From assembly GCA_035656295.1 (NCBI GenBank), contig DASRSU010000008.1:8110-72109 (forward strand): 64,000 nt of DNA, given 5' to 3'. The DNA is from Candidatus Bathyarchaeia archaeon. Its GTDB lineage: Archaea; Thermoproteota; Bathyarchaeia; 40CM-2-53-6. The notes below the pieces were generated by a model that saw only the letters and a list, made by a program, of their open reading frames with translations, had not been told where the DNA came from and made no database searches. Below are positions 5,065 to 56,713 of this stretch, one piece after another (the first letter of the stretch is position 1; each line of letters opens with the position of its first letter). Both the position numbers and the translations under genes were made by a program.

Positions 5065-5670
5065 CTATGCCCGCTTGTGCGGGGGTGATTGGAGGAATAT
5101 GGCCTTGAACCCTTCGAGCCAGGCCCGTTTAGCTTCTGGAACAGAAAGCCCCGAGACCATGAGCGTCTCGATCCCATTCCACAAACCAATGGCCGCATAT
5201 GTTATGGAGCGCAAGTCTAGCTGATCACTGACAAATCCTTTCTTCTGCAATTGGCCTAAGAAGCTTGTCAGGACATCCACATATTCGTCCTGGGTTTTCT
5301 TGAGCACGCGTCTAAGACTCGGGTTGCGTGACGCTTCCGAGAATATTTCAAAGCCGAGTCCCAAATTCCCCTCGTACCGCTTCACCATCTTATCGAAAAA
5401 TTCGCTGGCGCTCTCGATCGGATTCTTCCTCTCATCGAAGCTTGAGTACAGAATCTCTTTCAGAGCGAGTGGTTCCGTCCGGCTTACTTCTTCGAACAAT
5501 TCTTCCTTACTTGCAAAATACAGGTACAGCGCACCCTTGCTTACGCCAATCTTCTTTGCAACATCGTCCATCGTCGCCTGGCGGTATCCTTTCTCCGCGA
5601 ATACTTGGTTTGCAGCATCAAGGATCCGGCCCTTCGCTTCTTCCTTATACTCCGGCACGACTCGAGGCAT
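5065..5670 (-). CDS. TetR/AcrR-family transcriptional regulator
   Basis: N-terminal TetR HTH ([44 protein letters not shown]). The ORF opens at TTG 5679; the first ATG is at 5670. Divergent from the ABC operon. Confidence 0.9.
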
Positions 5671-5705
5671 TTCTATCAATCCGTACGCTCAACCTGGTAT
5701 TTAAA

Positions 5706-5758
5706 ATGACTGATGCGTCTGTGGAATGACCGATGCGCTTAAATACTGACCAATCAGT
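5706..5758. promoter_or_regulatory. candidate operator/promoter: three direct repeats aTGACyrAT(G/C) with TGAC at 5707, 5727, 5747 (exact 20-bp phasing) plus TTTAAAA / CTTAAATA AT-boxes
   Basis: Read directly in the 102-bp TetR-ABC intergenic region: atgactgatgcgt / atgaccgatgcgc / ctgaccaatcagt. The third unit is palindromic with the first (tgactgat / atcagtca). Confidence 0.35.
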
Positions 5759-5781
5759 CACTTTCACCAAGTGGTAAACAG

Positions 5782-6732
5782 ATGATCAATCCCTCTGCTG
5801 GATCCGACAAGATTGTCCAAGTAGAGAATCTCTCAAAGAAGTACGGAAATATTACAGCGGTCAACGGGATCTCATTCAACCTCACCAAAGGCGAAATCTT
5901 CGCTTTCCTAGGTCCTAACGGAGCCGGGAAAACCACCACCGTGGAAATCCTAGAAACTCTCCGAAACCCGACTGGCGGTCGAGCACATGTCCTCGGTTAC
6001 GACGTTAGCAAACGCACAGACCAAGCCGAAATCCGGAAACGCATTGGTGTCCTCCCACAGGATTTCAATGCAATCGACCGGCTAACAGTCCGAGAGAATA
6101 TCAATTATTTCGGAGCCATGTTCAAACACCAACTGGACGCGGACCAACTCATCGAACAGGTCGATCTAAAGGATAAACGAGACGAACAGTTCAAGAGTCT
6201 CTCTGGCGGGTTGAAACAACGAGTCGGCCTAGCAGTAGCCCTTGTAAACGATCCCACCCTCGTCTTCCTTGATGAGCCCACAACAGGCCTCGACCCACGC
6301 GCACGTCGGGATGTATGGGGCGTTATCGAACGGTTGAAGAAACAGGGAAAGACAGTCTTTCTAACAACTCACTACATGGACGAGGCCGAGTATCTGGCAG
6401 ACATCGTCTCGATCATTAACAATGGCCAAATCATTGCGTTGGGAACACCTGACCAGTTGATAGACTCCTACGGCGGTAAGAAGACGCTAATCATCCGCGA
6501 CGCAGGCCCACAGGGTCTCAAACAGCTACCACCGAACATTTCGAAAGCGGATCTACGCAACGCTGGTGACATCGCAATACCCCTCAACAATGGAGAACTC
6601 ACCAACATACTCCTCGAAATAGGGAAAACCCCGCTTCACGATAAGGAGATCGAGGTCAGACGTCCCACGCTGGACGATGTCTTTCTCAACCTTACCGGGC
6701 GTAGAGTGTCCGAGGAGGGAAACGGTGCATGA
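5782..6732 (+). CDS. ABC transporter ATP-binding protein
   Basis: Walker A GPNGAGKTT, ABC signature LSGGLKQRV, Walker B LVFLDEPTTGLD, H-loop TTHYM. Confidence 0.92.
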   Translation: MINPSAGSDKIVQVENLSKKYGNITAVNGISFNLTKGEIFAFLGPNGAGKTTTVEILETLRNPTGGRAHVLGYDVSKRTDQAEIRKRIGVLPQDFNAIDRLTVRENINYFGAMFKHQLDADQLIEQVDLKDKRDEQFKSLSGGLKQRVGLAVALVNDPTLVFLDEPTTGLDPRARRDVWGVIERLKKQGKTVFLTTHYMDEAEYLADIVSIINNGQIIALGTPDQLIDSYGGKKTLIIRDAGPQGLKQLPPNISKADLRNAGDIAIPLNNGELTNILLEIGKTPLHDKEIEVRRPTLDDVFLNLTGRRVSEEGNGA

Positions 6733-7844
6733 CCCGGGTCACAACCATCATAATTGGCCACTTCAAAGGCTGGTATCGCAGCAGAAGCAACATCTTCTGG
6801 ACAATCGCCTTCCCGCTTCTGCTCATAGTCCTGTTCGGCGCAATCTTCGGAAGCGGCAGCACAAAGTTCGACCTATACCTCCAGAACCAAGACCTCAACG
6901 GGAACGTTCCCACCACGTACTCACAAGGCTATGTACAGGTCCTCAACCATACTGGAGCCTTTAACCTCCGAATGATACCTGCAGAAAACACGAACCCGCT
7001 CGGCTATGTGAAAGATGACGCACAAGTCCACAACAGAGGCCAACGATTACTAGTAATACCCCTTGGCTTCCAGACGGAACTCAATACGAAACACAATGCA
7101 AGCATTCAGCTGTACATGGACAATAGTGATCAAGCTTCTGCAAGCCTCGCTGGCATAGTCACAGCAGCCACAACCTCGTACGCATCCCAATTCGCCACCA
7201 ACCCGGCCAGCCTGACAGTGAGCCAGGTGCCAATTGTTACCAGAAACGTCCGGTACATTGATTTCTTCATACCCGGAGTCATCGGCATGACACTGCTCAC
7301 CACAGGCGTCTTCGGCGCCGTAAACACGAACGGCAGATACAGGGAACTGAAGATCATCAAGAAACTGGCCACTACCCCCTTGAGCAAGATCGAATGGATC
7401 CTGGGAATGGTAGGCTACCAGATGATTCTCGCCACGATCTCGCTCGCGGTCATACTCGTATTTGGCTGGGCCATCTTCGGCGTAAACGCCACCATCACCA
7501 TCTACACCGCGGGACTCGTATTCGCCGCCGCATTACTATTCCCAGGTATAGGAATGGTCCTAGCCAACTTCGTCAGAGAAGCCGAATCAGCCGATGCAGC
7601 CGCCAATGCGATAACATTCCCGATGATGTTTCTCGCGGGCACGTTCTGGCCCCGCGAGACCCTACCTGATATTCTGAAGGTCCTCGCCAACTTCATGCCA
7701 TTGACCTACATCAACGATGGATTACGGGATGCAATGATCTATCTCGCACCAGCCCAGGCATTCAACAACATGATCATAGCACTCGGCCTCGCAGCATTCT
7801 TCATCGTCCTTGGCAGTTTGCTCATGAACTGGAAAGAAGAATAG
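6729..7844 (+). CDS. ABC-2 family transporter permease
   Basis: ATGA start/stop overlap with the ATPase gene; multi-TM 371-aa protein with ABC-2 permease topology (N-terminal TM, large loop, five C-terminal TMs). Confidence 0.8.
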   Translation: MTRVTTIIIGHFKGWYRSRSNIFWTIAFPLLLIVLFGAIFGSGSTKFDLYLQNQDLNGNVPTTYSQGYVQVLNHTGAFNLRMIPAENTNPLGYVKDDAQVHNRGQRLLVIPLGFQTELNTKHNASIQLYMDNSDQASASLAGIVTAATTSYASQFATNPASLTVSQVPIVTRNVRYIDFFIPGVIGMTLLTTGVFGAVNTNGRYRELKIIKKLATTPLSKIEWILGMVGYQMILATISLAVILVFGWAIFGVNATITIYTAGLVFAAALLFPGIGMVLANFVREAESADAAANAITFPMMFLAGTFWPRETLPDILKVLANFMPLTYINDGLRDAMIYLAPAQAFNNMIIALGLAAFFIVLGSLLMNWKEE

Positions 7845-24780: not shown

Positions 24781-26145
24781 TCACTTTCTGAAAGTCATGA
24801 CCCATTCAGCGGACATCTTCTCAGATGGACGCATATCATGCGGCCGCATCATAAGGACAGACCCGAAGCTGTCAACTCGCGCAAAACCTAGTTCTTCGGC
24901 TATCTGTCCTATGACTGTGTGCGTGGGGACCGGAATTTTCCTAATCAAGTTGTCAGCAATAGCGTAGCAGAAATGCCCCTCATCCACCAAGACTCGCTTG
25001 ATCTCCAACATTGTCTCCCGCATGTCTCGGAAGAATTGATAAACGACGTACGCTCTCTTTTTGTCGATACTCCATAGTTCCTTGAGGATCGAGTCTAGAA
25101 GTTCGTTTCCATATTTCGGCATCTTGGAGTAAAGAGTTGCAGGAGCCTGTTCATTGCCGATATATGCGCGTTTGAGCTCTCCTAGAGGCCCTTTCCAGAA
25201 ACCAAACCAATACAACTGGAGTTGGTGGGCCCGAGGATAATCAACCGCATTCAGATACGGCGGAGATGTCATAACGAGATTTACTGTGCGGTCTGCCAAT
25301 TGAATCATTCTTGCATCTTCGCCGATGATTTGCGCAAGACTTTCCTTGCTGCAGGCCTTAGAGAATGCTATCATCTTAGGAACCAAGACATTGGTCCGTT
25401 CAATGAAGATCTTCTTGGCGTCGATAGCTCTTTTCGTCTTGGCCCTCATATGCCGGCTTATAGCAAGAGCATAGAGGAACTTAGGGTCAGCATTTGAAAC
25501 CTCTTTCAGAATCGAAGATAGAACGACGAGAAAGAATTCACGAACATCTCTATCCTCAATACGCAGAATAGCGGCGTAGATTATCCCTAGATCCTCTAGA
25601 ACATCGCCTCTGAACCAGTAATCTCGGTTAGGAAAGGAGGGGATTTCAGACTGATTGCTTTTGACAATCTCGTTGAACAGTTTGTTCTGTTGACTTCTTA
25701 GCTTGATCTCGTCAAGGGGAGTCGTTTTGACTTTGGCAAGCAGTCTTGCAAGAGGATCTACATCGATCGCGTAAGAATTCCTTGCCCATAGCTTAGCTTC
25801 TACGTTTGTGGTACCACTTCCACAAAAAGGATCAAGAACAACATTTCCTCTTGTCGTGAATTTGTGAATAGCCCATCGGGGAATTTCTGGTATGTACTTA
25901 GCAGGATACTTGTGAAAACCATGGGTGTAGTTTGACCTGTCGAGACTCACAATTGAAAGCAGTTTTCCCTCGAATACTCTCTCGGTCGATATGTCGCCCT
26001 CAATTGTCCCGGTGAGTGTTTGAGCAAACTTACGCCTCTGCTCTTTATCGTCGAATACATACTGGAGTAACCCTCCCCCTGTGGGTTCGTTGTTCTCAGA
26101 CATGAGTCTGGGCCCTAGCGTTTCAAATGGTTTTGTTAGAGCCAT
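24781..26145 (-). CDS. DNA methyltransferase, N6-adenine/N4-cytosine class (N6_N4_Mtase family)
   Basis: HKYPAKYIPEIPRWAIHKFTTRGNVVLDPFCGSGTT (AdoMet motif) and NLVMTSPPYLNAVDY (catalytic S/D-PPY). Confidence 0.85.
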   Translation of the reverse strand: MALTKPFETLGPRLMSENNEPTGGGLLQYVFDDKEQRRKFAQTLTGTIEGDISTERVFEGKLLSIVSLDRSNYTHGFHKYPAKYIPEIPRWAIHKFTTRGNVVLDPFCGSGTTNVEAKLWARNSYAIDVDPLARLLAKVKTTPLDEIKLRSQQNKLFNEIVKSNQSEIPSFPNRDYWFRGDVLEDLGIIYAAILRIEDRDVREFFLVVLSSILKEVSNADPKFLYALAISRHMRAKTKRAIDAKKIFIERTNVLVPKMIAFSKACSKESLAQIIGEDARMIQLADRTVNLVMTSPPYLNAVDYPRAHQLQLYWFGFWKGPLGELKRAYIGNEQAPATLYSKMPKYGNELLDSILKELWSIDKKRAYVVYQFFRDMRETMLEIKRVLVDEGHFCYAIADNLIRKIPVPTHTVIGQIAEELGFARVDSFGSVLMMRPHDMRPSEKMSAEWVMTFRK

Positions 26146-32242: not shown

Positions 32243-33121
32243 TCACGTAATTGTCACGGTCTTCGCCGTGAAGGCATACTTCTCGTAGACGACCTCTGTC
32301 GGGTCAAACTTCCACGACTCGAGTCGTGTAATGTAGCAGCCTGACAATGTCAACGTCGAGGTCGCGCTCTTGAGGACCCAGCTAATCGTATTGGACGTGG
32401 CGTTGGTGAGATTAGTGTACTGGCCGGTGTCTTCCCAGATGATCGTGAATGTGCCGTTGATACGGCGCTGTTTTGGGGGCATGAACTTTTGCTGTGACTG
32501 GCCGAGAACGTGCAGCTTCTCCACGTTCCGTTCGAAGGTTACCTGAATCTCCCGGACGTCAGGATTAGCGGCACCGATCGTGACCGGGTTGACGCCTCCA
32601 TCGTAGAAGGACCAGGGTGTCACGGCCGGATCCGTTGCATAACTGCCTGAGCCGATTGGAGTACTAGTTGACGGGACAGGAATCGATTTTGCGGTAAGCG
32701 TGCACTTGACCTTAGTCAGGTCCCCGTATCTCGAGGAAATTGTCAGGCTGCCTACTCTACTGCCGAGCAGCTGGACAAAGTTTTCGGTTCCAGACATTTT
32801 CGCGGAGAAGAGTATGCTGAGACTCTTGTCAATCGTGCCAGTACCTCCACCTTGACTACTGATGGCGTATTTTGCGAAGGTAGAGCTCGCCATGGCGTAT
32901 TCCATTTCCATCGAATAGGTCTCTGCGCCTTTGAGAATGTAGACGAGATCTTCAACGCCAAGCTGTGGTACGAGAATGTTCTGCATGTCAGCCTTGACGT
33001 CAGCATTGCCTATTGGTGCGATCCAGGACATTGCCGGATTCGTTGGAAAGACGCCATAGCTGGCTTCTTCGGCATACTGGAGGTTCTTGACAACTAGCCA
33101 GCCTCCGCTGGGACTTGACAT
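32243..33121 (-). CDS. putative major tail / tail tube protein
   Basis: 292-aa beta-rich protein upstream of the gp10-like and tail-fibre genes; positional inference only. Confidence 0.3.
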   Translation of the reverse strand: MSSPSGGWLVVKNLQYAEEASYGVFPTNPAMSWIAPIGNADVKADMQNILVPQLGVEDLVYILKGAETYSMEMEYAMASSTFAKYAISSQGGGTGTIDKSLSILFSAKMSGTENFVQLLGSRVGSLTISSRYGDLTKVKCTLTAKSIPVPSTSTPIGSGSYATDPAVTPWSFYDGGVNPVTIGAANPDVREIQVTFERNVEKLHVLGQSQQKFMPPKQRRINGTFTIIWEDTGQYTNLTNATSNTISWVLKSATSTLTLSGCYITRLESWKFDPTEVVYEKYAFTAKTVTIT

Positions 33122-33125
33122 TTTG

Positions 33126-33965
33126 TTACACTCTGTTGAAGATTAGGATTTGACGGAAGGCATGGCGCTTCTGGCCCATCTTGACCTTGACCGAGTTGTG
33201 GCTTGTTCTGAATGGCAGGAGCGAGAAGCGCTTGTAGAATTCGCGGATCTCTGGCGTATCATCATAGGTCATGATGAACTTGCCATGGATCCCGGCCAGC
33301 AGCTGTGCTAGATCCTTGTGGTCTTGTTCTATGAACGAGTAGTAGCCCTTGCTGACAGTTGAAAGATATGGCGGGTCTAGGAAGAATAGTGTTCCAGCAC
33401 TATCCCAGTTTCTGATGCACTTTCGAAAGTCGAGGTGGTCGATGTTGACGGATCTAAGCCGTTGGCTGAGATAGGCGACACGGCCTGCGATGTTCGTCCA
33501 GCTTGCAGAGCCGCCATGGGCCCCAGAACGATCAAAACGCCATCCTTTAGTGGGATCACCGACAAAAGCGCTGGAGATCGTGTAGGCGGTTCGTACTGCA
33601 GCTTCGACACGGTCAAGGCCAACTGTTTCGATGTCCTCTTCCAGCTGATCTCTCCACTCATAGTACAATTGCCTGCTGTAGTGGAGCCAGCGACATTTCT
33701 CGAGGAACTGAACCGGACTGTTCCTGACCGTCTCGAAAAAGTTGACAAGCCATCCGTTCCGGTCATTGTAAACTTCAATCTCGCTCGGCGGTTTTGCTAG
33801 GAGAACGCTGGCGGCGCCGCCGAATACTTCAACATAGATTTTGTGGGAGGGGAGTAGTCCCGCTATCTTCGGGGCCAAGCGGTATTTCCCGCCTCGCCAG
33901 GGAAACGCTGCGATTCTCTTGCACGCGCTGCTTCCAGTAGCGATGACAGTATCTAGCAAGATCAA
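33126..33965 (-). CDS. dam: Dam-type (D12 class) N6-adenine DNA methyltransferase
   Basis: FPWRGGKYRLAPKI, EVFGGAASV (AdoMet site), FFLDPPYLSTVSKGYY (DPPY). Confidence 0.8.
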   Translation of the reverse strand: MILLDTVIATGSSACKRIAAFPWRGGKYRLAPKIAGLLPSHKIYVEVFGGAASVLLAKPPSEIEVYNDRNGWLVNFFETVRNSPVQFLEKCRWLHYSRQLYYEWRDQLEEDIETVGLDRVEAAVRTAYTISSAFVGDPTKGWRFDRSGAHGGSASWTNIAGRVAYLSQRLRSVNIDHLDFRKCIRNWDSAGTLFFLDPPYLSTVSKGYYSFIEQDHKDLAQLLAGIHGKFIMTYDDTPEIREFYKRFSLLPFRTSHNSVKVKMGQKRHAFRQILIFNRV

Positions 33966-44116: not shown

Positions 44117-45915
44117 TTCCTCTTCCTCTCAACAACGTATTCCCGGCCGGTAGGAGTACGGATCTTCAACGTCTCCGCTGCGGGATCTTTGGGTTGATCG
44201 TTCAGTGGTTTCGGGACTGCCTGGGGCTGGAACATCGTTCCCTGACCAGCCTCCTCCGGGATCTGCAATCTCTCGCGCACGTATTCCTGGCTGACTATTC
44301 CTCGAGTATAGAGATCTGCTAACGGTGCCTCGTTGGCCCGCCAGTCTTCAGGCGTGATTTCTTTGAAGTTGAAAGTAATGTCTTCCTTGTCGGTCGGCGA
44401 GTCTTTCGCTGCCGGGACGTTGGCTGCTTGTGGTTTTGCTACTTTCTTGGGGGTTGAGATTGTACGTCTACCTCTGGTCCATCGCCAAGCTGTCTACCAG
44501 GACGCAGGTTAAGCAGAATTCTCGGAATCACGTAGTCCATGTGGAGCTGCTCTAGCTTCTCCTGGTTCTCTCGAGTCTCGTCTTCCATCAGTTCGAAGTT
44601 GAGGCTTCCCCACTTGATCTCCTGACCTCCGCCCAGAGTTGCAACTGTGAGAGGGATGCCCATTCCCAGAAGGACACGTTCCTTGTACGCCTGGAGATAG
44701 TTGGCCACACTGTCGCTGGTTCCGCCGGCTTTGTAGAGCTCTTCGCCTTTGACGAGAAAGTTGACCCAGACGTCCTCGCCCTGCTGACGATTTTCGATCG
44801 TAGTCTTCTGGCGCAGAATGTCATCGGTTGCAGGAATACTAGAGACCTGTTGGTGGGTCTCGTCAAAGTACGTGCCTCCAAAGTTCCACACAATCGTCTT
44901 GTCGCCTCTCTTGCCAACGATCGTGGGCAAGTACTGCAGCATTACGAGGTAGCCTTTCAGCGCGAACAATGTTTCGCGGAAAGTACTGTAGCCGTAGATG
45001 CCGCCCGTTATCTTGTTGAACTGGAGACACAGCATCTGATCCGGGTGAAAATCAATCTCCGTCTCGCTACCGATTACTGCAGTCGGTGCAAGAGGCCCGG
45101 ACCATCTCCGCTGAATATACTTGTCCACAAGAACTGTTGCGCGGTCCTTGTCCCACTGCTGTGGCTGGATCTGGATACGGAACGTTCGTGGATCCGTGTT
45201 CTTGAGACCATAGAACTTGGTTGCAGGAGTGAAGCTTACGAGTGGTCGCGGCGCGTAGGTGATGTTACTGCCCTGGTATCCGACTCCTTGGGCAACGTCA
45301 GCAGCGTTTGAAAGACTCCAGGTTGCCGTGCTGTCGTCTACGGACTCAATGTACGCATTGCCCCAGATCAGCGCGTTCTTCGTCGCTTCGAATAGTGAGT
45401 GCTTGATCTTGAGCCGCTTGTACTCTTTGAGAATCTTGTCGGTCAGCTGGTCGCTGCCACTGTTGATCTCAAAACCCGGTTTCCAAACTTGACGAGTTTT
45501 GAGCTTTACCGCGTATGCAACTTCGGGAACGAACAGATATGCGTCGAGGCTAGAGGAGCTTTCTTAGAGCTCTTACTCCCAATACCAACCCCAGTCGTTT
45601 AGCCCTGCTTGGTTTAGCAGACTGGCCAACCGAAGGTTGGTGCATACTGTCCGAGAACGGGCGTCGTGGCTGCAAGGGCGCGATCGTCTTCTCGAATCTT
45701 GGTCCTAACATGCTCAGCGAGTTTCTGACTCGCGACCTGCGGAGAATATTCCCAGCTGTCCCCAAAGCCAATGTCGCTGTTGCGAACATAGCCCTGCTGG
45801 ATGAAACGTATTGGAACCTTCTCAATTATTCTGTTGAAGTCGGGCAGAACGGATGTTGAGAAGACTGGGGTGGGGAGGGTGTTTCGCCCTGGTGTCCGTT
45901 TTTTAAGACCGAATC
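44117..45915 (-). pseudogene. portal protein, reading frame broken at least three times
   Basis: Hand translation gives portal-like segments in different frames, from N- to C-terminus. First, frame q (~45915 to TAA ~45613), ...DFNRIIEKVPIRFIQQGYVRNSDIGFGDSWEY...PVLGQYAPTFGWPVC*. Second, frame c (opens ~45562, ESSSLDAYLFVPEVAYAVKLKTRQVWKPGFEINSGSDQLTDKILKEYKRLKIKHSLFEATKNALIWGNAYIESVDD...ATKFYGLKNTDPRT), switching at ~45176-45186. Third, the listed 229-aa ORF 44439..45128 (...RIQIQPQQWDKDRATVLVDKYIQRRW...GGGQEIKWGSLNFELMEDETRENQEKLEQL...). Fourth, the C-terminal frame 44117..~44490 (...ITPEDWRANEAPLADLYTRGIVSQEYVRERLQIPEE...). None of the upstream segments has a canonical start. Confidence 0.55.
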
Positions 45916-45930
45916 TTTCTAGGAACCTCT

Positions 45931-46394
45931 TTGGTAGATGTAACAGTGCTCACCTCCGACGTGATCGTGAAGTCTTGGTCTGAACCCGAGAAATCCTGGC
46001 TCGCCTGTGCTATCGACAGCGAAGGATCTATCAATTTCCGTCCTGACAAGAGGCACAAGGAAACAATGAGTTTCTCCGTTTGGTTCTGCAATACCAATCG
46101 GCCATTCGCGCACACGTTCGCCAAACTGACTGGAGGGACGCTCTTTTCGCGCGGCCACCGCGCGGTTTCGGCAAGAAGATGCAATTCGAGGTCTATGTGA
46201 CCTCCAAGGCGCGGGTTGGGAAGCTGCTAGAAGCAGTGCTTCCGTATCTGATTGTAAAACAACAACGCGCTCGCGAACTGCTAGCCTGGATCCGTCAGCA
46301 TCCAGAGACTAGAGCCGACAGAATCGTCAGGTTGAACCGGACGCTTCCTCGAAACGAGGCCGGTTCAAACATGCCTCTAGCATCGTCCTACTGA
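45931..46394 (+). pseudogene. LAGLIDADG-family homing endonuclease (single-motif type), frameshifted near 46105-46135
   Basis: KSWLACAIDSEGSINFRPDKRHKETMSFSVWFCNTNRPFAHTFAKLTGG (LAGLIDADG-like motif WLACAIDSEGS). The C-terminal half continues in the +1 frame (FGKKMQFEVYVTSKARVGKLLEAVLPYLIVKQQRARELLAWIRQHP). The break lies at a cttttcgcgcggccaccgcgcgg run. Sits on the opposite strand between the portal and TerL genes. Confidence 0.6.
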
Positions 46395-47864
46395 ACATAC
46401 GTGCCGTCTGCTTTCTTGTGACCGCAGATACAGTCAGTGTTGGGTGGATTCCAGCGTCCACACCAAGTGCACAACACCTTGCCGTGCTTTGTGTTGTCAT
46501 TGTCCCAGGGCTTCTTGGGCCCATTGTCGAATTCGCCCGGTCGCTTGCTCAGATATACTGTGTAATCGATGGGCTTGTTCTCAGGCCTTGAAGCGTACAC
46601 TGCCAAGGCGAACGCCCACAGCTGATCGTCATGTGTCCCGGCGGGGTGAGAGAACTGCATCTGCCCGGTCTTGGTGAGTTCGTACCTTTCCAAATTTAGC
46701 TGGTTGATCAAGTCCTGATCATAGAACACCGCAGCTTTTCCTTCTTGCATCTGTTTCTTGAGATACACCATGATCTGCTGTTTCTGGGGCAGGGAGAGCA
46801 TAACGCCCTCCGAATTTTTCAATCCGGCTTTCGCGGCTTCCTCCACGAAAACTTCGCCAACTCCAGTTTGATCAATGAGGATGCGGACGACTCGGTCATG
46901 TTTCTGATTCGCAAGAGACAGCCAGCCGAGGACCGTCCCATATTCAGTGCCGAGTTTGAACTGTTTCACCTTAACTAGAAGTGCCTGCCCAGCAATCTTC
47001 CGGACTACTGCGATCACCGAATGATTACGCTTCTGGCCAAGGTCTACGCCAATGTAGAACTCGCCATGTTTAGCGTCCTCAGTCGCTGCTGGTGTAGAAG
47101 TCGTCGGGTATAGGCTCCAGATCTTGTCTTATCGATTTGGTGATGAGACTCATTGGGAGCCAGGCGTCTTCGTCTTCGGCGAACTCTGCTTCCATCTCTC
47201 TTTGCCAACGCCACGGATCAACCGACTCAATCTGTTTGCGCAGTTTCTCCAGAATCTCCTCTTTGAGGGGACCGTTGGGTTCGAGGGCTTCACGCCAGGA
47301 AATGTGATGTCGTGAGACATCTCCGTAAGTATCGTTGTCGGTACACATCCGATAGAAGACGCTGTCGCGGCTTCCAGGTGTCGAGGTGGCGAGAAACTTA
47401 CCGTTAGTGGTGGCCAGCGTAAAGACGACTGCGTCGAGTAGATCTGCGTCGTCCCGTACGAAACCGTATTCGTCGATGAATACGAGATTGACTCCGGGCT
47501 CGCCACGTATCGTCTCGGGATTGTTGGGGAAGGCCTGGACGCGGCTGCCGTTGTGGAATTCGATTTTTGTTTGGAGCGGTTTCGGGGCCACATATTTGGG
47601 TAGACGCCTCAGGAAACTAGAAATTTTTCGAATGATGATCTTGCTTTGCCGAAGTGAGGGTGAGACGACTAGGACATTGAATTCACGGTTGCGTAGGCAC
47701 TGAAAGAGTATCAACGCTGCGATGATGTGGCTTTTGCCGCTTTGTCGACACCAGCGAATGACAATGAACTGTGACTTGTCATTGAGAACTTTGTTTTGGT
47801 ATTTTGTGGGTTTGAATGACAATAGTTTCTCGCAAAATTCTACTGCCTCCTCCGGGACATTCAA
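46388..47864 (-). pseudogene. terL: terminase large subunit, ATPase and nuclease domains in different frames (break ~47054-47100)
   Basis: ORF 47079..47864 has Walker A VIRWCRQSGKSHII, Walker B LVFIDEYGFV and an ...AEFAEDEDAWLPMSL end. ORF 46388..47017 is the RNase-H-like nuclease (IDQTGVGEVFVEE, HDDQLWAFALAVYA). The nuclease frame extends upstream with no start (STPAATEDAKHGEFYIGVDLGQKRNHSVIAVV) and overlaps the ATPase ORF end (PDDFYTSSD*). Confidence 0.85.
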
Positions 47865-47889
47865 GCCCTTCTTGCGCGCAAGGCGTCCT

Positions 47890-48204
47890 TCAATCTCGTG
47901 CTTGAGGTTGTGCGTCTCCGTCTCGAAGCTCTTCGACCATATGTCTGAGTTCCGCGAGCTGTCTCTTCGCGACGTTGTTGTCCACGTTTTTCATTAGTCC
48001 GTTTAGGGTTTGTGCAAGATAGGCCAACACGCTATACCAGCTAGTCCTCTGGTTTGCTTCGTACTCCGGTTCATTAGGATTGGTTGGGCCTTTACGCTTA
48101 GTTGGGCCCTTGGCAAGCATCGCTGCTGTTCTGATCGCTTCATGGAGAGTATTGATGATCTCTCGCCTGATGGTTTCAGTAGTGGGACTTCGTTTTTTCG
48201 GCAT
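47890..48204 (-). CDS. putative terminase small subunit (positional)
   Basis: 104-aa ORF immediately upstream of TerL in the same orientation; basic N-terminus (MPKKRSPTTETIRREIINTL...). Confidence 0.3.
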   Translation of the reverse strand: MPKKRSPTTETIRREIINTLHEAIRTAAMLAKGPTKRKGPTNPNEPEYEANQRTSWYSVLAYLAQTLNGLMKNVDNNVAKRQLAELRHMVEELRDGDAQPQARD

Positions 48205-48604
48205 TCAATGAGGCCTGCCAAAGAAGACTCTCAGCCAATCCAATTTGTCGAAGTAATTGTGAGATCAACCGTGAATTAGGTGCCTGCGCAGGTGTCTGCG
48301 GCTGCGTCATCCACGTCCTCGCCCTTTACCGTGATGTATGTTGGTATGTTTCCTAACAAGTTGCAATATTGTAAGATTCATGATTGTCGCTATCGCACTG
48401 AATGCGCTGTTGATCAATATCCCGTCGTGGCCTGTCAGTGTGCCCGCGATTGTGATCGCTGTAATGCCGAGAATCCCCGAGCTACCGAGCATTACTATGT
48501 TGTCCACCAAGATTGAACGCCGAACCATTTCAAGGAGAGACAATTACTAAACCCCGGATGATCTCGACAAAAAATTGGGGAGCCCAGTTCTTCGGACTTG
48601 GTGC

Positions 48605-50085: not shown

Positions 50086-50814
50086 ATGACAGGCATCCCC
50101 AAACCGACCGTCGAACGACTACTCCAGGAAAACCTGGAACATGACTGCAGTAAAGCCCGAGGAGCATGTGTTAGAATCGTTGCCGTTGCTGAGCTTCCGA
50201 CCATTTATGGACATTTCCAGGCGGTAGCGTTCGAGAACAACGTGGACAAGAAAGAGCATGCGGCCCTTGTCAAGGGAGACGTTTTCGACAGAGATGACAT
50301 CCCGGTCAGAATGCATTCCGAATGCCTCACAGGCGACGTCTTCGGCTCCCTGCGCTGCGACTGCCGCGAACAGTTGCAACACTCCCTGAAAGCAATCAAC
50401 GAAATGGAGCATGGCATTATCCTCTACTTGAGACAGGAGGGGCGGGGAATCGGCTTCGTAAACAAGATACGAGCATATCAGCTACAAGACCATGGCAAGG
50501 ATACGTACGAGGCGAACATTGCACTAGGCTTCCGGCCGGACGAGCGGGACTACGATCTAGCCGCACACATGATCGGGTCGTTACATGTCAAGTCGGTCAA
50601 GCTGATGACGAACAATCCTCAGAAGATCAAGGATTTACAATTACACGGTGTCAAGATAACAGGTCGAATCCCCCTTATTATTCCGTCAAACAGGTACAAC
50701 GCGTTCTACCTAGAAACGAAACGCGTCAAAGGAGGACACTTGTTACAGCCGGGTCAATTGCATGACATGTTTCTGGAGCAGGGCGAGCTACCGCCAGACC
50801 AAGATCCAAAATAG
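50086..50814 (+). CDS. ribA: GTP cyclohydrolase II (riboflavin biosynthesis)
   Basis: RMHSECLTGDVFGSLRCDCREQL zinc/substrate motif; ILYLRQEGRGIG. Confidence 0.85.
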   Translation: MTGIPKPTVERLLQENLEHDCSKARGACVRIVAVAELPTIYGHFQAVAFENNVDKKEHAALVKGDVFDRDDIPVRMHSECLTGDVFGSLRCDCREQLQHSLKAINEMEHGIILYLRQEGRGIGFVNKIRAYQLQDHGKDTYEANIALGFRPDERDYDLAAHMIGSLHVKSVKLMTNNPQKIKDLQLHGVKITGRIPLIIPSNRYNAFYLETKRVKGGHLLQPGQLHDMFLEQGELPPDQDPK

Positions 50815-53284: not shown

Positions 53285-56200
53285 TCACGCAAAGTCGCCG
53301 ATCAGGAGTTTCTGCTGTGTCTCCGCTTCTTTTTCGGCGGGGAGTGGTTTGAAGGTCTCGGACAATTCGACCTTGATCAGTCCTAGCCTCTGACGGTAGT
53401 ATTCGCGGATGTTGTAGCGTGCGACCATTTCTGTAGCCACGTCCAAGTATTTTTCGACTCCGCTGCGGAAGACAGTCCCAGTGAGTTTTCCGCCACACCG
53501 GTAACACTTACCGCCTAGCGGGGCGCGTCGAGGTTTCCACCCGCACTTCGTGCATCTTGCCCTTTGCGAAGTAAACGTTCGCAGGTTACCAACTAGATCG
53601 CGTAGGATATGTGTAGACAGGACTTTCACTGCTACTTCTTCTGCTTTGACTGCGACTATCTGGTCCGCCAGTCGCAACTGTTCTTTCACCTTTTCAAGCA
53701 TCGTCGGCAACTCCTTGTAACTACTTACGAGTCGTCCGTCGTCAAGGTCTAATGTGGAGTGCGTGAGCCCTATGTGCCAGTGATTGCCTCCGTTGCCTAC
53801 GCAAACATTCAATGTTGGAACAAGGTTCTCTACATCTTTCGGATGAGTAGACTGCAGCGTCTTCTCATAAAACTCGACTGGGAATCGGTCAACAGTTTCG
53901 ATGTTCAGCGCCTGACGAGCCACTTCTGATGGGTTTAGCACTGGAGAGAGCAGTAGAGGTGCATCCATCAACCCCCCTATTCGGTCAGGCATGAATTCCC
54001 TCGAAAAATTGAGCAGTACGTCGAATAATAGTGACACTGAATCCTCGTCTCCGTCACAGTCCCTGCGCTTGGCAGCGTGCCAGAACGGATGGGCGTAACA
54101 TACGCTCGCCTTGGTGAACCCAATGATCCTGGCTACTACTCCTACCGAAGTGTGCGGCGAGAGTCCTACGACTAGTCGACCGATAAGGTCCTCTTTGGAT
54201 CTGGCTCCGTAGAACTTTTCCTGGCCGTAGTACAGGGTTAAGAGGTCGTCAAGGAATTTCGAGACTTTCACAAGGTACAGTGCGCAGACTTCCGGGACGA
54301 CAAGGTCCTGTAGTTCAAGCGGACAAAGTTGATCAGGAGACTCCAATGGTTTGCCTTCGACATCTTTCGTGTAACCTAGCAAACGTGCTTCTTCGATGGA
54401 GAGTCCGATTTCTCTGGGCCGGAAATGTGTCAGTATCGCGTTGGTGGCATCGAATCGTACTGTGCCGTCTTTGAACACTGAAACGTCATTCTTGGATCGC
54501 AGAATCCCCTTCTCTAAGGGCTCAGGAGTCTTTGACTTGTTGATCAGTCCCTTTACTCCTTTGACAGGCTCAGTAGGCTTGGCAAGTGATAGCCGATGCG
54601 CCGCATCATCGAGTAGACGGTCTAGATCCAGTGGCTTCTCATGGTAAGGTACTGTCTCGAGATTACAGTTTCCGCACACGTCGGAGCCCGGTTGACCGCA
54701 CCGTGGACACCATTTACGTTGAACTGTGTATGAGCCACAAACTGGACACTTGACACGCGGTTCCCACGTATCACACTCCGGACAGATTCTATCCATGATC
54801 TCGAGTGATAGTGAGAGCTTCTTCGAGGCTTCCACAATGTCCCGTCTTGATCCCCCGAACTGCCCTGTGGGAAAAAGTGAGTGTACCCTCGGTGTCATCA
54901 CGCGCTCCTTTGCTTTCTCTGGGCGTCCCATTCTCGCGCCTACGAAAACAGGAGCCTTGTTCTTGATGGGGAAACCGGCAAGTTTGCTGAGATTGTCGAG
55001 CACGGTGTCGCTCGATTGATCCATCAAGAGTTCGGGTCGCTCGGCCCCGAGAAGAGCGTTTACGATGAGAGCATCATCTCTATCGACTATTATTGAACTG
55101 TTCAGAATCTTATGAGGGAGACACAACCGTTCAAGAATAGTTTTTAGCCGTTCATCGTTCGAGAAAACCATTGAGCCGTCTTCCATTTTGGAATGGCTCC
55201 CTACTCGGTGATGGAAATGCTTCAGATCCTCAAGTTTTATCGAATCCCAAAACCAAGTATGGAAGGGATGAAGCGGTAAACTTAGGATCCGGGATATTTC
55301 GAGGGCTTCCTCAGCGGTAGGCCTCGTTGACAGTGGGTCGTCAACCATTTTTTTCAGTCTGGAAAAGGGAACTGTCAAGGATTCTGGGACGGTCTGGCCT
55401 TCCAGCTCTACAAGTTTCGTGGTCAAGAGTTGGGCCCACCATTCCTCTACAAACCCCGACGCGACAAGGATTCGATTGTTCTCGAGAAATTCTCCGTATC
55501 CAACCATCAAGTCTCCGATGAAGAGAATCTCTTCGATACGGGTCTTGATCGCTTTGGCTTCAGTGACATTGCCGACTCGCAATACTGAGCCGTCGGTCAA
55601 CTTGACAACTGGGGGCTCGATGCTGTCGACGGCTGTGACGATGCCGGCTTTTCCTGGCCTCTCCATCTTTAGCTGCACTCCTACTGCGAGAAATCCTCCA
55701 AGAATCTCCATTGTGCATGGGTGTACCCCTACGCTGGCAAGGCCAGTGTTCCTGGCGTGACCATAACGTATCCGGAATCCACCATGCGCGCTTGGAAATG
55801 CGAAGATGGGACGTCCGCCAACAACGTCTTCCATGAACATGAACTCCTTCGCCTCTTCCCCATCGGCGGAAGATGTTTTCAACTGGGCGAGCCAGTCCCA
55901 TCCCTCAAGTCCCAGTCTCTCGACTATCCTCAGGACTTTCGTCGATCTGCCAAGCAGTCCATCGTTGACGACTCGTAGCGCGCCGCCACGTACACGGTTC
56001 GTCTCTATTCTGGGAAGGTTCCGGTTGACGACCACCTCGACAGGATCTGTCTCGACTCCATTCGGCTCGATTGGAAGGCTCATCATCGTATTGTGCAATA
56101 CATCATCCGGGTTGCGATATTGAAAGCGTGCAACCATCCGTTCGTAGAGTCGCAGTTCTTCGACGAATCTGCGTGCTTCTTGTTCTGTGGCACGGTAGGG

Positions 56201-56713
56201 CTGAAGGTTCAGTTTTCTTCGGACATGGTCCGCCACTATCATCGTAAGACCCATTTCTGTTCCACCGGCCGATCTCATGGGACCAGCAAAATACACGGCA
56301 AGATGTTTAGTTCGATCTGGGTTCGTCCGGATCTTTACGTCGTAGATTCCTTGGATTGGGGCAACGGTCACTGCCTCATCCAAGACAGCTAGGGCAGTCC
56401 GTACGGCCCGTTCAGCCGCTTCCTCCTCGTCGAAGCTTCCGAAACGTCCCAGCACAATCTCTTCACTGATTTTCAGCGCTGTCTCTTCGCGCGAGATCAC
56501 GTTGTTCAGTTCGCGGATTCTTGCAGCTACACCAGGGGGACCAACAGCTTTCTCAACGCGGTCGGCTAGGTCATAGGTAGTCTGTGATTCTACTTTTATT
56601 GAAGGGTCTAGACCTTTGCCGCGGCAGAGAGTTGCTATCGCATACTGCCGTTCATACTCTTCATGCAGCCCTTTCACATAATCGGATTCAGGTCGTGTTT
56701 CATGGCTCTGCAT
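53285..56713 (-). CDS. polD: DNA polymerase II (PolD) large subunit DP2
   Basis: 1142 aa without intein; conserved DP2 blocks including the Cys clusters (CPECDTWEPRVKCPVCG, CPRCG...CGNC, CTKCGWKPRRAPLGGKCYRCGGKL) and GGRPIFAFPSAHGGFRIRYG. Confidence 0.95.
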   Translation of the reverse strand: MQSHETRPESDYVKGLHEEYERQYAIATLCRGKGLDPSIKVESQTTYDLADRVEKAVGPPGVAARIRELNNVISREETALKISEEIVLGRFGSFDEEEAAERAVRTALAVLDEAVTVAPIQGIYDVKIRTNPDRTKHLAVYFAGPMRSAGGTEMGLTMIVADHVRRKLNLQPYRATEQEARRFVEELRLYERMVARFQYRNPDDVLHNTMMSLPIEPNGVETDPVEVVVNRNLPRIETNRVRGGALRVVNDGLLGRSTKVLRIVERLGLEGWDWLAQLKTSSADGEEAKEFMFMEDVVGGRPIFAFPSAHGGFRIRYGHARNTGLASVGVHPCTMEILGGFLAVGVQLKMERPGKAGIVTAVDSIEPPVVKLTDGSVLRVGNVTEAKAIKTRIEEILFIGDLMVGYGEFLENNRILVASGFVEEWWAQLLTTKLVELEGQTVPESLTVPFSRLKKMVDDPLSTRPTAEEALEISRILSLPLHPFHTWFWDSIKLEDLKHFHHRVGSHSKMEDGSMVFSNDERLKTILERLCLPHKILNSSIIVDRDDALIVNALLGAERPELLMDQSSDTVLDNLSKLAGFPIKNKAPVFVGARMGRPEKAKERVMTPRVHSLFPTGQFGGSRRDIVEASKKLSLSLEIMDRICPECDTWEPRVKCPVCGSYTVQRKWCPRCGQPGSDVCGNCNLETVPYHEKPLDLDRLLDDAAHRLSLAKPTEPVKGVKGLINKSKTPEPLEKGILRSKNDVSVFKDGTVRFDATNAILTHFRPREIGLSIEEARLLGYTKDVEGKPLESPDQLCPLELQDLVVPEVCALYLVKVSKFLDDLLTLYYGQEKFYGARSKEDLIGRLVVGLSPHTSVGVVARIIGFTKASVCYAHPFWHAAKRRDCDGDEDSVSLLFDVLLNFSREFMPDRIGGLMDAPLLLSPVLNPSEVARQALNIETVDRFPVEFYEKTLQSTHPKDVENLVPTLNVCVGNGGNHWHIGLTHSTLDLDDGRLVSSYKELPTMLEKVKEQLRLADQIVAVKAEEVAVKVLSTHILRDLVGNLRTFTSQRARCTKCGWKPRRAPLGGKCYRCGGKLTGTVFRSGVEKYLDVATEMVARYNIREYYRQRLGLIKVELSETFKPLPAEKEAETQQKLLIGDFA

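Follow-up and report, generated by a model that had tools for sequence, protein, structure and literature searches.

The 64,000-nucleotide (nt) stretch analyzed here, hereafter the window, comes from a contig of a Candidatus Bathyarchaeia archaeon and carries, at 45931-46394 on the plus strand, a gene for a predicted LAGLIDADG homing endonuclease wedged between the large terminase gene (TerL) and the portal gene of a provirus related to head-tailed viruses. Our interpretation, to which we assign a probability of roughly 0.78, is that this gene is a mobile cassette of ~0.5 kb at the TerL-portal junction, placed antisense to its neighbors, specifying an enzyme of the I-CreI type and inactivated in the copy at hand. 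The unexpected part is the adjoining portal gene, which appears to be split by introns of the tRNA type, unusual in a viral protein-coding gene, and the link between these introns and the endonuclease gene.

Two plus-strand open reading frames (ORFs) that overlap in different frames, 45931..46200 (89 amino acids, aa) and 46080..46394 (104 aa), join into a single protein of ~148 aa. The features of this gene are as follows.

45946..46152, plus strand: 5' part of the endonuclease gene, frame 1, with a homologue-supported GTG start at 45946
46000-46029, plus strand: LAGLIDADG-type motif LACAIDSEGS, within the 5' part
46153-46154, plus strand: extra bases gg, shifting frame 1 to frame 3, placed by comparison with uninterrupted homologues
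46155..46394, plus strand: 3' part of the endonuclease gene, frame 3, with a conserved PYLIVK helix containing the invariant K104

The earliest possible start is the TTG at 45931, and the GTG at 45946 is preferred because homologues begin MLTS, matching the GTG-CTC-ACC-TCC found there. Frame 1 of the window reads LTGGTLFSR to 46152 and frame 3 reads PPRGFGKK from 46155; the two bases between them are considered extra because homologues read GGTLY(T/S)RPPRGFGKK without interruption, the intact sequences running unbroken across the site as LTGG(T/R/I)(L/I)Y(T/S/N)R(P/H)PRGFGK(K/R). An initial annotation of this DNA, made from its letters alone, had reported the frameshift, and judged against at least eight intact homologues it is real. 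All conserved residues are intact on either side of it. The comparison thus points to one LAGLIDADG gene broken by a 2-nt insertion, an inactivated copy in which the gg would be a pseudogenising lesion unless it is an error of assembly. The same annotation had set the endonuclease on the plus strand against TerL and portal on the minus strand, with a 7-nt overlap onto the TerL stop, and the coordinates agree on both counts: the endonuclease stop codon occupies 46392-46394, and with the TerL stop at 46388-46390 on the other strand and the endonuclease ORF ending at 46394, the two genes therefore overlap by 7 nt.

The gene is evidently not a chance ORF, since a search of 5.8 billion proteins with the single sequence found homologues at E = 7e-58 to 1e-45, among them three intact ones of 143-150 aa with 61-69% identity (E = 7e-58 to 2e-51), along with the window's own 104-aa fragment, and since a profile built from four family members matched 275 proteins. 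Intact homologues overall measure 141-150 aa. A PHROG search with the endonuclease gave no match, some distant members from the family profile search carry precomputed Pfam assignments to LAGLIDADG_1 (PF00961) or LAGLIDADG_3 (PF14528), and phmmer against PDB sequences matched I-MsoI and I-CvuI over residues 19-131. An AlphaFold2 model of the repaired protein, computed from a 66-member alignment (predicted local distance difference test, pLDDT, 92.3), has an alpha-beta-beta-alpha-beta-beta-alpha core and the overall topology H-E-E-H-E-E-H-H (elements H13-26, E27-33, E41-49, H52-62, E65-69, E79-84 and H87-100). Foldseek against the PDB placed I-CreI, I-MsoI and I-CvuI on top (E = 1e-7 to 1e-6, probability 1.0, template modelling score ~0.6 (0.59)); the top 46 matches are these three enzymes and their engineered derivatives (e.g., E-DreI), all at probability 1.0, and the archaeal intron enzyme I-Vdi141I was also retrieved. 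Across the 66 sequences D24, G27, N49 and K104 are invariant and E26 is at least 90% conserved, and the motif residues W18, L19, A20, C21, A22, D24, E26 and G27 are each invariant or at least 90% conserved. In the phmmer alignment E26 falls on the second Asp of the I-MsoI and I-CvuI motif, and, from the alignments and the active site of I-CreI, we take E26, N49 and K104 to be the counterparts of D20, Q47 and K98 of I-CreI. The fold therefore bears out the homing endonuclease identity that had been predicted, and the model argues for a single-motif, I-CreI-type LAGLIDADG enzyme, predicted to be a homodimer. By sequence comparison the family appears to be a new, divergent LAGLIDADG subfamily residing in Bathyarchaeia viruses and chromosomes, and otherwise an ordinary selfish element.

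The case for mobility comes from the distribution of the gene among relatives, designated by L numbers and drawn mainly from contigs of TerL homologues, of which there are more than 1100. The endonuclease ORF occurs in 0 of 80 Bathyarchaeia loci with a related TerL and is also absent from six virus relatives with the same portal; it is therefore not a conserved structural gene, an alternative that had been raised at the outset. The arrangement of the window, with portal (-), endonuclease (+) and TerL (-), is repeated in L001, where the endonuclease gene overlaps the TerL 3' end by 18 nt, and recurs in three further assemblies (L084-86) whose TerL and portal protein segments are 98-100% identical. 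L152 and L153, with TerL 87-89% and portal 87% identical to those of L001, are without the endonuclease gene, and in them TerL abuts or overlaps the portal gene directly. A three-way DNA alignment of these loci finds ~470 nt extra in L001, beginning just after the TerL stop, and these insert-free relatives support the earlier proposal of a free-standing insertion at the TerL-portal junction. L088 and L089 carry a clean cassette of ~510 nt in sense orientation, including a TATA-like box and located between the stop of a small zinc-ribbon ORF and the portal ribosome-binding site, which L138 lacks. In L087 and L160-162 the endonuclease gene, again in sense orientation, immediately precedes the portal, and L087 has the same portal family with a different kind of TerL (5376-7076; 566 aa, N-terminal helix-turn-helix plus Terminase_6C), so the endonuclease gene follows the portal and not the terminase. 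Altogether five virus lineages have it beside the portal 5' end, and it is found there in both orientations. Homologues 60-67% identical also occur in cellular contexts, namely AlkZ-like / endonuclease / aconitase in six assemblies, NucS / endonuclease, and others. The sporadic spread, precise indels, both orientations and multiple contexts argue that this is mobile DNA.

Among the cellular homologues, an intact one ~60% identical precedes the gene for an aconitase-family large subunit by 10 nt in each of six independent assemblies (L146-L151; 1432-1863 in L146), and another intact one, ~60% identical to that of the window, immediately follows the NucS gene in L159 (1431-1856).

The same distribution bears on whether the LAGLIDADG protein might instead be a domesticated packaging accessory, for example a DNA-binding or end-cutting partner of the terminase like the HNH proteins of some phages. 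In five virus lineages it sits between terminase and portal or immediately ahead of the portal, and its residues at catalytic positions are conserved, both of which fit such a role, but the gene is missing from the viruses closest to L001 and from six further viruses that share this portal, is found in both orientations, has close homologues in non-viral contexts and is a pseudogene in the window, all of which makes this explanation very improbable.

The cassette is also free-standing, outside any intron or intein: its orientation in the window and L001 is opposite to that of the genes on either side, and no convincing bulge-helix-bulge structure encloses it. A scan for bulge-helix-bulge introns of 380-620 nt around the endonuclease of the window and L001 returned chance-level matches only. 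Placement of the endonuclease inside a large portal bulge-helix-bulge intron, a short exon 1 then being concealed in the TerL 3' end, was rejected, as the outer helices were of 1-3 bp with no common solution. When L084 (reverse complement; L001-type) is compared with L153, DNA identity of ~86-89% declines to 50-66% in the ~100 nt flanking the insert on either side and then recovers, a pattern that short co-conversion tracts or rapid evolution of the gene ends could produce. A T/A-rich box, TTTTTTAAGA, is present at 45899-45908 on the plus strand, ~40 nt upstream of the endonuclease GTG and inside the N-terminal portal coding sequence of the other strand; its spacing resembles that of the TATA-like box of the L088 cassette, and it may be a putative endonuclease promoter.

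Insertion of the cassette has consequences for the portal gene, which we read as composed of the following parts.

45622..45949, minus strand: portal exon 1, open from 45949, behind TGA 45950-45952, homologous to the N-termini of relatives up to TTPVLGQYAPTFGWP
45599..45621, minus strand: predicted portal mini-intron A, 23 nt (TCTGCTAAACCAAGCAGGGCTAA), at position 46 of a conserved 99-nt segment
45574..45598, minus strand: portal exon 2, 25 nt (..DDWGWYWEY)
45550..45573, minus strand: predicted portal mini-intron B, 24 nt (AGAGCTCTAAGAAAGCTCCTCTAG), at position 71 of the 99-nt segment
44439..45549, minus strand: portal exon 3, the protein body, 64-68% identical to the portal bodies of L001, L140, L141, L143 and L152-154

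The spliced frame contains no ATG, GTG or TTG before 45128. Its opening touches or overlaps the endonuclease 5' end, and the lack of a canonical start at this point stands as initially described, but the frame opens at 45949 and not at ~45915. The window portal begins LPKRFLERFGLKK, where relatives have SLKLLERLRRP or TLKRLLGIKE, and an internal ATG is missing as well (ATA-ATT in the window versus ATG-ATG in L088 and L099 and ATA-ATG in L001). In L153 the portal ATG is situated 46 nt inside the TerL 3' end, with a similar arrangement in L140; the matching position in L001 reads GTA, and portal N-terminal coding there resumes beyond the cassette, behind a stop, the first start being an internal ATG (MERVPLNW) 48 codons on. 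The suggestion that the insertion displaced the portal start is supported, because portal N-terminal homology resumes past the cassette without a canonical start and the ATG of L153 has no counterpart in L001. In both antisense lineages, the window and L001, the cassette stops at the opening codons of the portal, and the native start codon is missing.

Further downstream the portal frame is broken again, and these breaks, missed by the initial annotation, are the mini-introns listed above. The archaeal splicing endonuclease recognizes a 4-bp helix flanked by 3-nt bulges and cuts between the second and third base of each bulge (PMC2738675), and our reading is that the portal is not decayed and is split by two intervening sequences obeying this bulge-helix-bulge rule. 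The conserved portal peptide TTPVLGQY...DAYLFVPE is divided among two or three frames, separated by stops, in the window and in all relatives that carry the endonuclease, whereas in L140, L141/142, L143/144, L152, L153 and L154 the segment is uninterrupted and exactly 99 nt (33 codons) long. Interrupted alleles exceed this length by 23 to 89 nt in total, made up as follows.

Window: 23 + 24 nt
L001: 23 nt
L087: 26 nt
L088: 30 + 30 + 29 nt
L089: 29 nt
L099: 30 + 29 + 29 nt
L138: 30 + 29 nt
L160-162: 24 nt

Sister alleles fix some of the intron boundaries to the base, in that two 30-nt insertions of L088 have no counterpart in L089 and the 23-nt insertion of L001 has none in L152 and L153. Seven intron positions (24, 35, 38, 46, 51, 61 and 71) fall within these 99 nt, the most conserved DNA of the portal gene, and in 7 of 7 loci removal of the insertions brings back a 99-nt segment coding for the conserved peptide. 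For the window the spliced segment, TTPVLGQYAPTFGWPDDWGWYWEYLDAYLFVPE, is 99 nt long and near-identical to the uninterrupted L140, L141, L143 and L152-154, and exons 1-3 joined give 1464 nt, or 487 codons plus a stop. Intron A has the central helix GGCC/GGCT, 3-nt bulges AG/T and AA/A (cut after the second base) and the inner stem CTGCT/AGCAG, and a homologous intron of 24 nt occupies the same site in L160-162. Intron B, which contains two in-frame stop codons, has the central helix GGAG/CTCT, bulges TA/A and AG/C and the inner stem GAGCT/AGCTC. In both, the outer exon-exon helix is weak or absent (0-1 bp), and the window introns would therefore be relaxed bulge-helix-bulge forms.

At frame-restoring boundaries, 12 of the 14 intron instances satisfy a strict form of the rule, with 0 central-helix mismatches and an inner stem of 5-9 bp. 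The background of this rule in the 64-kb window is 1.65e-4 per candidate pair (592 matches in 2 x 64000 x 28 pairs), and window-wide the matches are not enriched (592 observed versus ~515 in shuffles), so the rule is informative only where boundaries are independently fixed. The stems also covary, in comparisons of 2-4 sequences per site. At position 46 the inner stem is CTGCT/AGCAG in the window and GTCGC/GCGAC in L160, with 4 of 5 pairs changed on both sides, and at position 38 TATCTTCAA/TTGAAGATA of L088 and CCCTTTCAC/GTGAAGGGG of L099 differ by four double changes plus one in the central helix. Rfam gave no match on 44300-48300, and no description of such introns was found in the Bathyarchaeia virus paper or the other literature searched.

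Were these insertions to remain unspliced, the portals would be pseudogenes, would be made as two polypeptides or would depend on ribosomal frameshifting or bypassing. Splicing is a reading at the level of sequence, gene callers split the portals into fragments and two instances lie outside the strict rule, all of which would suit this alternative. We consider it improbable given the exact return of 7 of 7 loci to 99 nt and to the conserved peptide, the covariation of the stems, and an arrangement shared by four independent assemblies (L001, L084-86) with TerL and portal segment 98-100% identical. Translational bypassing and programmed frameshifting were considered separately and rejected: the insertions occur in all three codon phases and lack matched take-off and landing codons, which excludes bypassing, and the frame offsets differ by locus.

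Several observations weigh against our interpretation of a mobile endonuclease cassette beside a spliced portal. The window endonuclease as sequenced cannot be active, and a Pfam search with its protein returned no direct match; cleavage activity and intron splicing are both predicted from sequence and model. Divergence of endonuclease and portal runs in parallel (63 versus 64%, 45-50 versus 53-55% and 38 versus 49%), and the data therefore accord equally well with recent homing and with a long history of vertical co-inheritance and repeated loss. On the side of the introns, the 23-nt intron of L001 has 2 central-helix mismatches and falls outside the strict rule, the best strict-rule solution for L087 (28 nt) is out of frame, and minimum-free-energy folding yields a bulge-helix-bulge for intron A and not for intron B. 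Finally, without a canonical start the window portal is either dead or uses an unusual initiation.

The condition of the terminase gene bears on the state of the window copy.

46388..47864, minus strand: large terminase gene TerL (Terminase_6N, E = 2.6e-8; Terminase_6C, weak; PHROG terminase, E = 3.6e-35)

TerL carries a frameshift between ~47079 and 47128, overlooked by the initial annotation: the ATPase ORF (47079..47864) ends in DDFYTSSD and a stop, and the nuclease part, with the motif EFYIGVDLG (EFYIGVDLGQKRNHS), and the Cys-rich tail follow in another frame down to 46388. The lesion looks like a simple 1-2-nt indel. A mini-intron was tried as the cause and rejected, as there is no strict-rule candidate on the minus strand at 46465-48235 and alignment with L002 and L001 leaves no room for an insertion of at least 12 nt. 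Because TerL is also frameshifted, the window endonuclease is probably dead, most likely a remnant within a decaying provirus that we infer to be defective. Both lesions could instead be assembly or consensus errors of the metagenome-assembled genome, the real provirus having an intact endonuclease and terminase. That both are 1-2-nt indels in G/C-rich runs, that conserved endonuclease residues are intact on both sides, and that the spliced portal is open for 487 codons and long neighboring ORFs are intact would accord with such errors. Two independent indels would be required within 1 kb, however, the window portal lacks both its native start and the internal ATG of its relatives, and the 104-aa fragment is annotated as such in the public record (a 1.05-Mb contig of a Candidatus Bathyarchaeia metagenome-assembled genome), so that we regard assembly error as unlikely and retain the reading of an inactivated cassette.

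What connects the endonuclease to the introns is their joint occurrence. All 7 endonuclease-bearing loci of the portal family (window, L001, L087, L088, L089, L099 and L160) have introns, one to three each, and 6 of the 7 endonuclease-free loci with the same portal have none, the exception being L138; a Fisher test on this association gives ~0.002, uncorrected for phylogeny. The introns are 250-430 nt from the endonuclease gene. Since introns accompany the endonuclease in 7 of 7 loci and occur in 1 of 7 loci without it, we propose that the two might cooperate, through target-site immunity or through trans-homing and co-conversion. An active enzyme would cut endonuclease-free genomes near the portal 5' end, and the gene would be copied in during repair; host tRNA-splicing endonuclease and ligase would remove the introns from the portal mRNA. 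Under cooperation, the enzyme would cleave the conserved 99-nt segment of intron-free portal genes, the mini-introns would split this target and render the endonuclease-bearing genome immune, and the introns would be carried into new genomes with the endonuclease gene by co-conversion. Such an arrangement would be an archaeal analogue of the "collaborative homing" of phages, in which host tRNA-splicing machinery acts on viral mRNA with up to three introns per gene. That endonuclease and bulge-helix-bulge mini-introns form a cooperative mobile system in archaeal head-tailed viruses is a proposal we hold tentatively, at somewhat below even odds. A palindromic 22-bp target was sought in the 99-nt segment and yielded one 8/11 pseudo-palindrome, at nt 31-52 in L140 and L141, not conserved in the others.

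The endonuclease and the introns may equally be unrelated neighbors, the introns being independent selfish or neutral insertions, or escape variants that break protospacers or restriction or integration targets in the best-conserved portion of the portal gene, and their co-occurrence a product of the shared ancestry of a few lineages. Counting against cooperation and for this explanation, L138 has two introns and no endonuclease gene, intron number varies among endonuclease-bearing sisters (one in L089, three in L088), and the genes beside the cellular-context endonuclease homologues are intact with no sign of introns; the parallel divergence of endonuclease and portal also runs counter to cooperation. 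In line with independent insertion, tRNA introns have been proposed as protection against viral integration (Randau and Soll, as cited in PMC4090602), and putative 12-bp "introns" occur in a rudivirus without an endonuclease (PMC2738675). The association itself speaks against mere proximity, as do the seven intron positions in five virus lineages, which therefore do not reflect one inherited event, and the closest pair, L001 versus L152/L153 (TerL 87-89%), which differs in both features at once. Taken with these points, unrelated proximity is a credible explanation, if one that we place short of an even chance.

The wider minus strand of the window is a head-tailed virus morphogenesis module, comprising TerL (46388-47864), the portal (44439-45949), a tail tube protein (32243-33121) and further tail proteins; host genes begin again with GTP cyclohydrolase II at 50086 and the large subunit of archaeal PolD at 53285-56713. 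The portal was assigned from synteny and from one family member's Pfam match to Phage_portal (E = 3.7e-7); the window portal has no direct match in Pfam or PHROG, and a PDB profile search with the portal alignment was also empty. Portal searches of a viral contig collection recovered two loci only. The tail region also contains two minus-strand DNA methyltransferase genes, at 33126-33965 and 24781-26145 (D12-class N6-adenine and N4/N6 methylase). The Cys-rich C-terminal tail of the window TerL (..KPWDNDNTKHGKVLCTWCGRWNPPNTDCICGHKK..; 46388-46520, minus strand) has its equivalent in a separate small zinc-ribbon-like ORF between TerL and portal in L141 (6380-6700) and L143 (5700-5965), and L088 and L138 likewise have a small CPxC...CPxC ORF between the two genes. 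TerL homologues 40-67% identical are common in Bathyarchaeia genomes (L002-L081), with the same portal family within +/-6 kb in 0 of 80; by inspection of translated ORFs, that of L002 is flanked by aminotransferase-like and GNAT-like cellular genes. The terminases of these 80 loci may be relics or domesticated, or may belong to viruses that use another portal. In L081 (3297-3404) and L075 (9484-9597) a second, isolated TerL C-terminal fragment of 36-38 aa is found 0.8-2.2 kb downstream of the complete TerL, and it could be a duplicated end or a recombination scar; an apparent insert of ~900 nt in the L081 TerL, considered as an intein, proved to be this second short fragment.

To our knowledge, cbf5 is the only archaeal gene for which mRNA splicing has been confirmed. 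In the present case a viral structural gene has one to three polymorphic mini-introns that fit the tRNA-splicing rule, with boundaries set exactly by intron-free sister alleles. If the portal introns are spliced, archaeal viruses would exploit host tRNA-splicing enzymes for their own mRNAs, and gene callers would systematically fragment such genes, as they have fragmented every intron-containing portal considered here. The link to the endonuclease would in that case offer a testable system for the mobility of protein-spliced introns and for introns as immunity against nucleases.

Comparison with known systems places the family between several precedents. With I-CreI, I-MsoI and I-CvuI it shares a single LAGLIDADG motif, a length of ~145 aa, the core fold (Foldseek E ~1e-7, 20-26% identity) and the acidic residue closing the motif, E26 here. 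Those enzymes are encoded within group I introns of algal organelle rRNA genes, whereas the present family consists of free-standing genes of archaeal viruses or archaeal chromosomes, too dissimilar for a direct Pfam match. The free-standing endonucleases known from T4-like phages and from cyanophages (mobE and the I-TevIII intron, PMC2790892; F-CphI and the psbA intron, PMC6083498; reviewed in PMC2988022) are likewise small nuclease genes between conserved genes, sporadic in close relatives and adjacent to a conserved gene whose intron has no endonuclease of its own, and by analogy the pairing of endonuclease and introns described here may parallel mobE / I-TevIII and F-CphI / psbA. Their nucleases, however, are of the GIY-YIG, HNH or EndoVII-like kinds and their introns are self-splicing group I introns, in contrast to a LAGLIDADG nuclease and predicted protein-spliced bulge-helix-bulge introns of 23-30 nt, with as many as three in one gene. 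A LAGLIDADG enzyme is likewise paired with introns removed by the tRNA-splicing endonuclease in archaeal bulge-helix-bulge introns that carry LAGLIDADG genes (in rRNA, e.g., I-DmoI and I-Vdi141I) and in their ORF-less derivatives. In the present system the endonuclease lies outside the introns, up to ~400 nt away and in some cases on the opposite strand, no large enclosing intron was found, and the host gene is protein-coding and not rRNA. The view of mini-introns as ORF-less derivatives has been raised for cbf5 (PMC2738675), and by analogy the portal mini-introns could have such an origin. The cbf5 pre-mRNA intron of Crenarchaeota, a confirmed case of archaeal mRNA splicing (PMC2738675), has in common with the portal introns cleavage between the second and third bulge bases, predicted here, and lineage-specific gain and loss. 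The portal introns differ from it in residing in a viral structural gene, in being several within 99 nt at seven positions, in being polymorphic between near-identical viruses, and in their link to an endonuclease gene.

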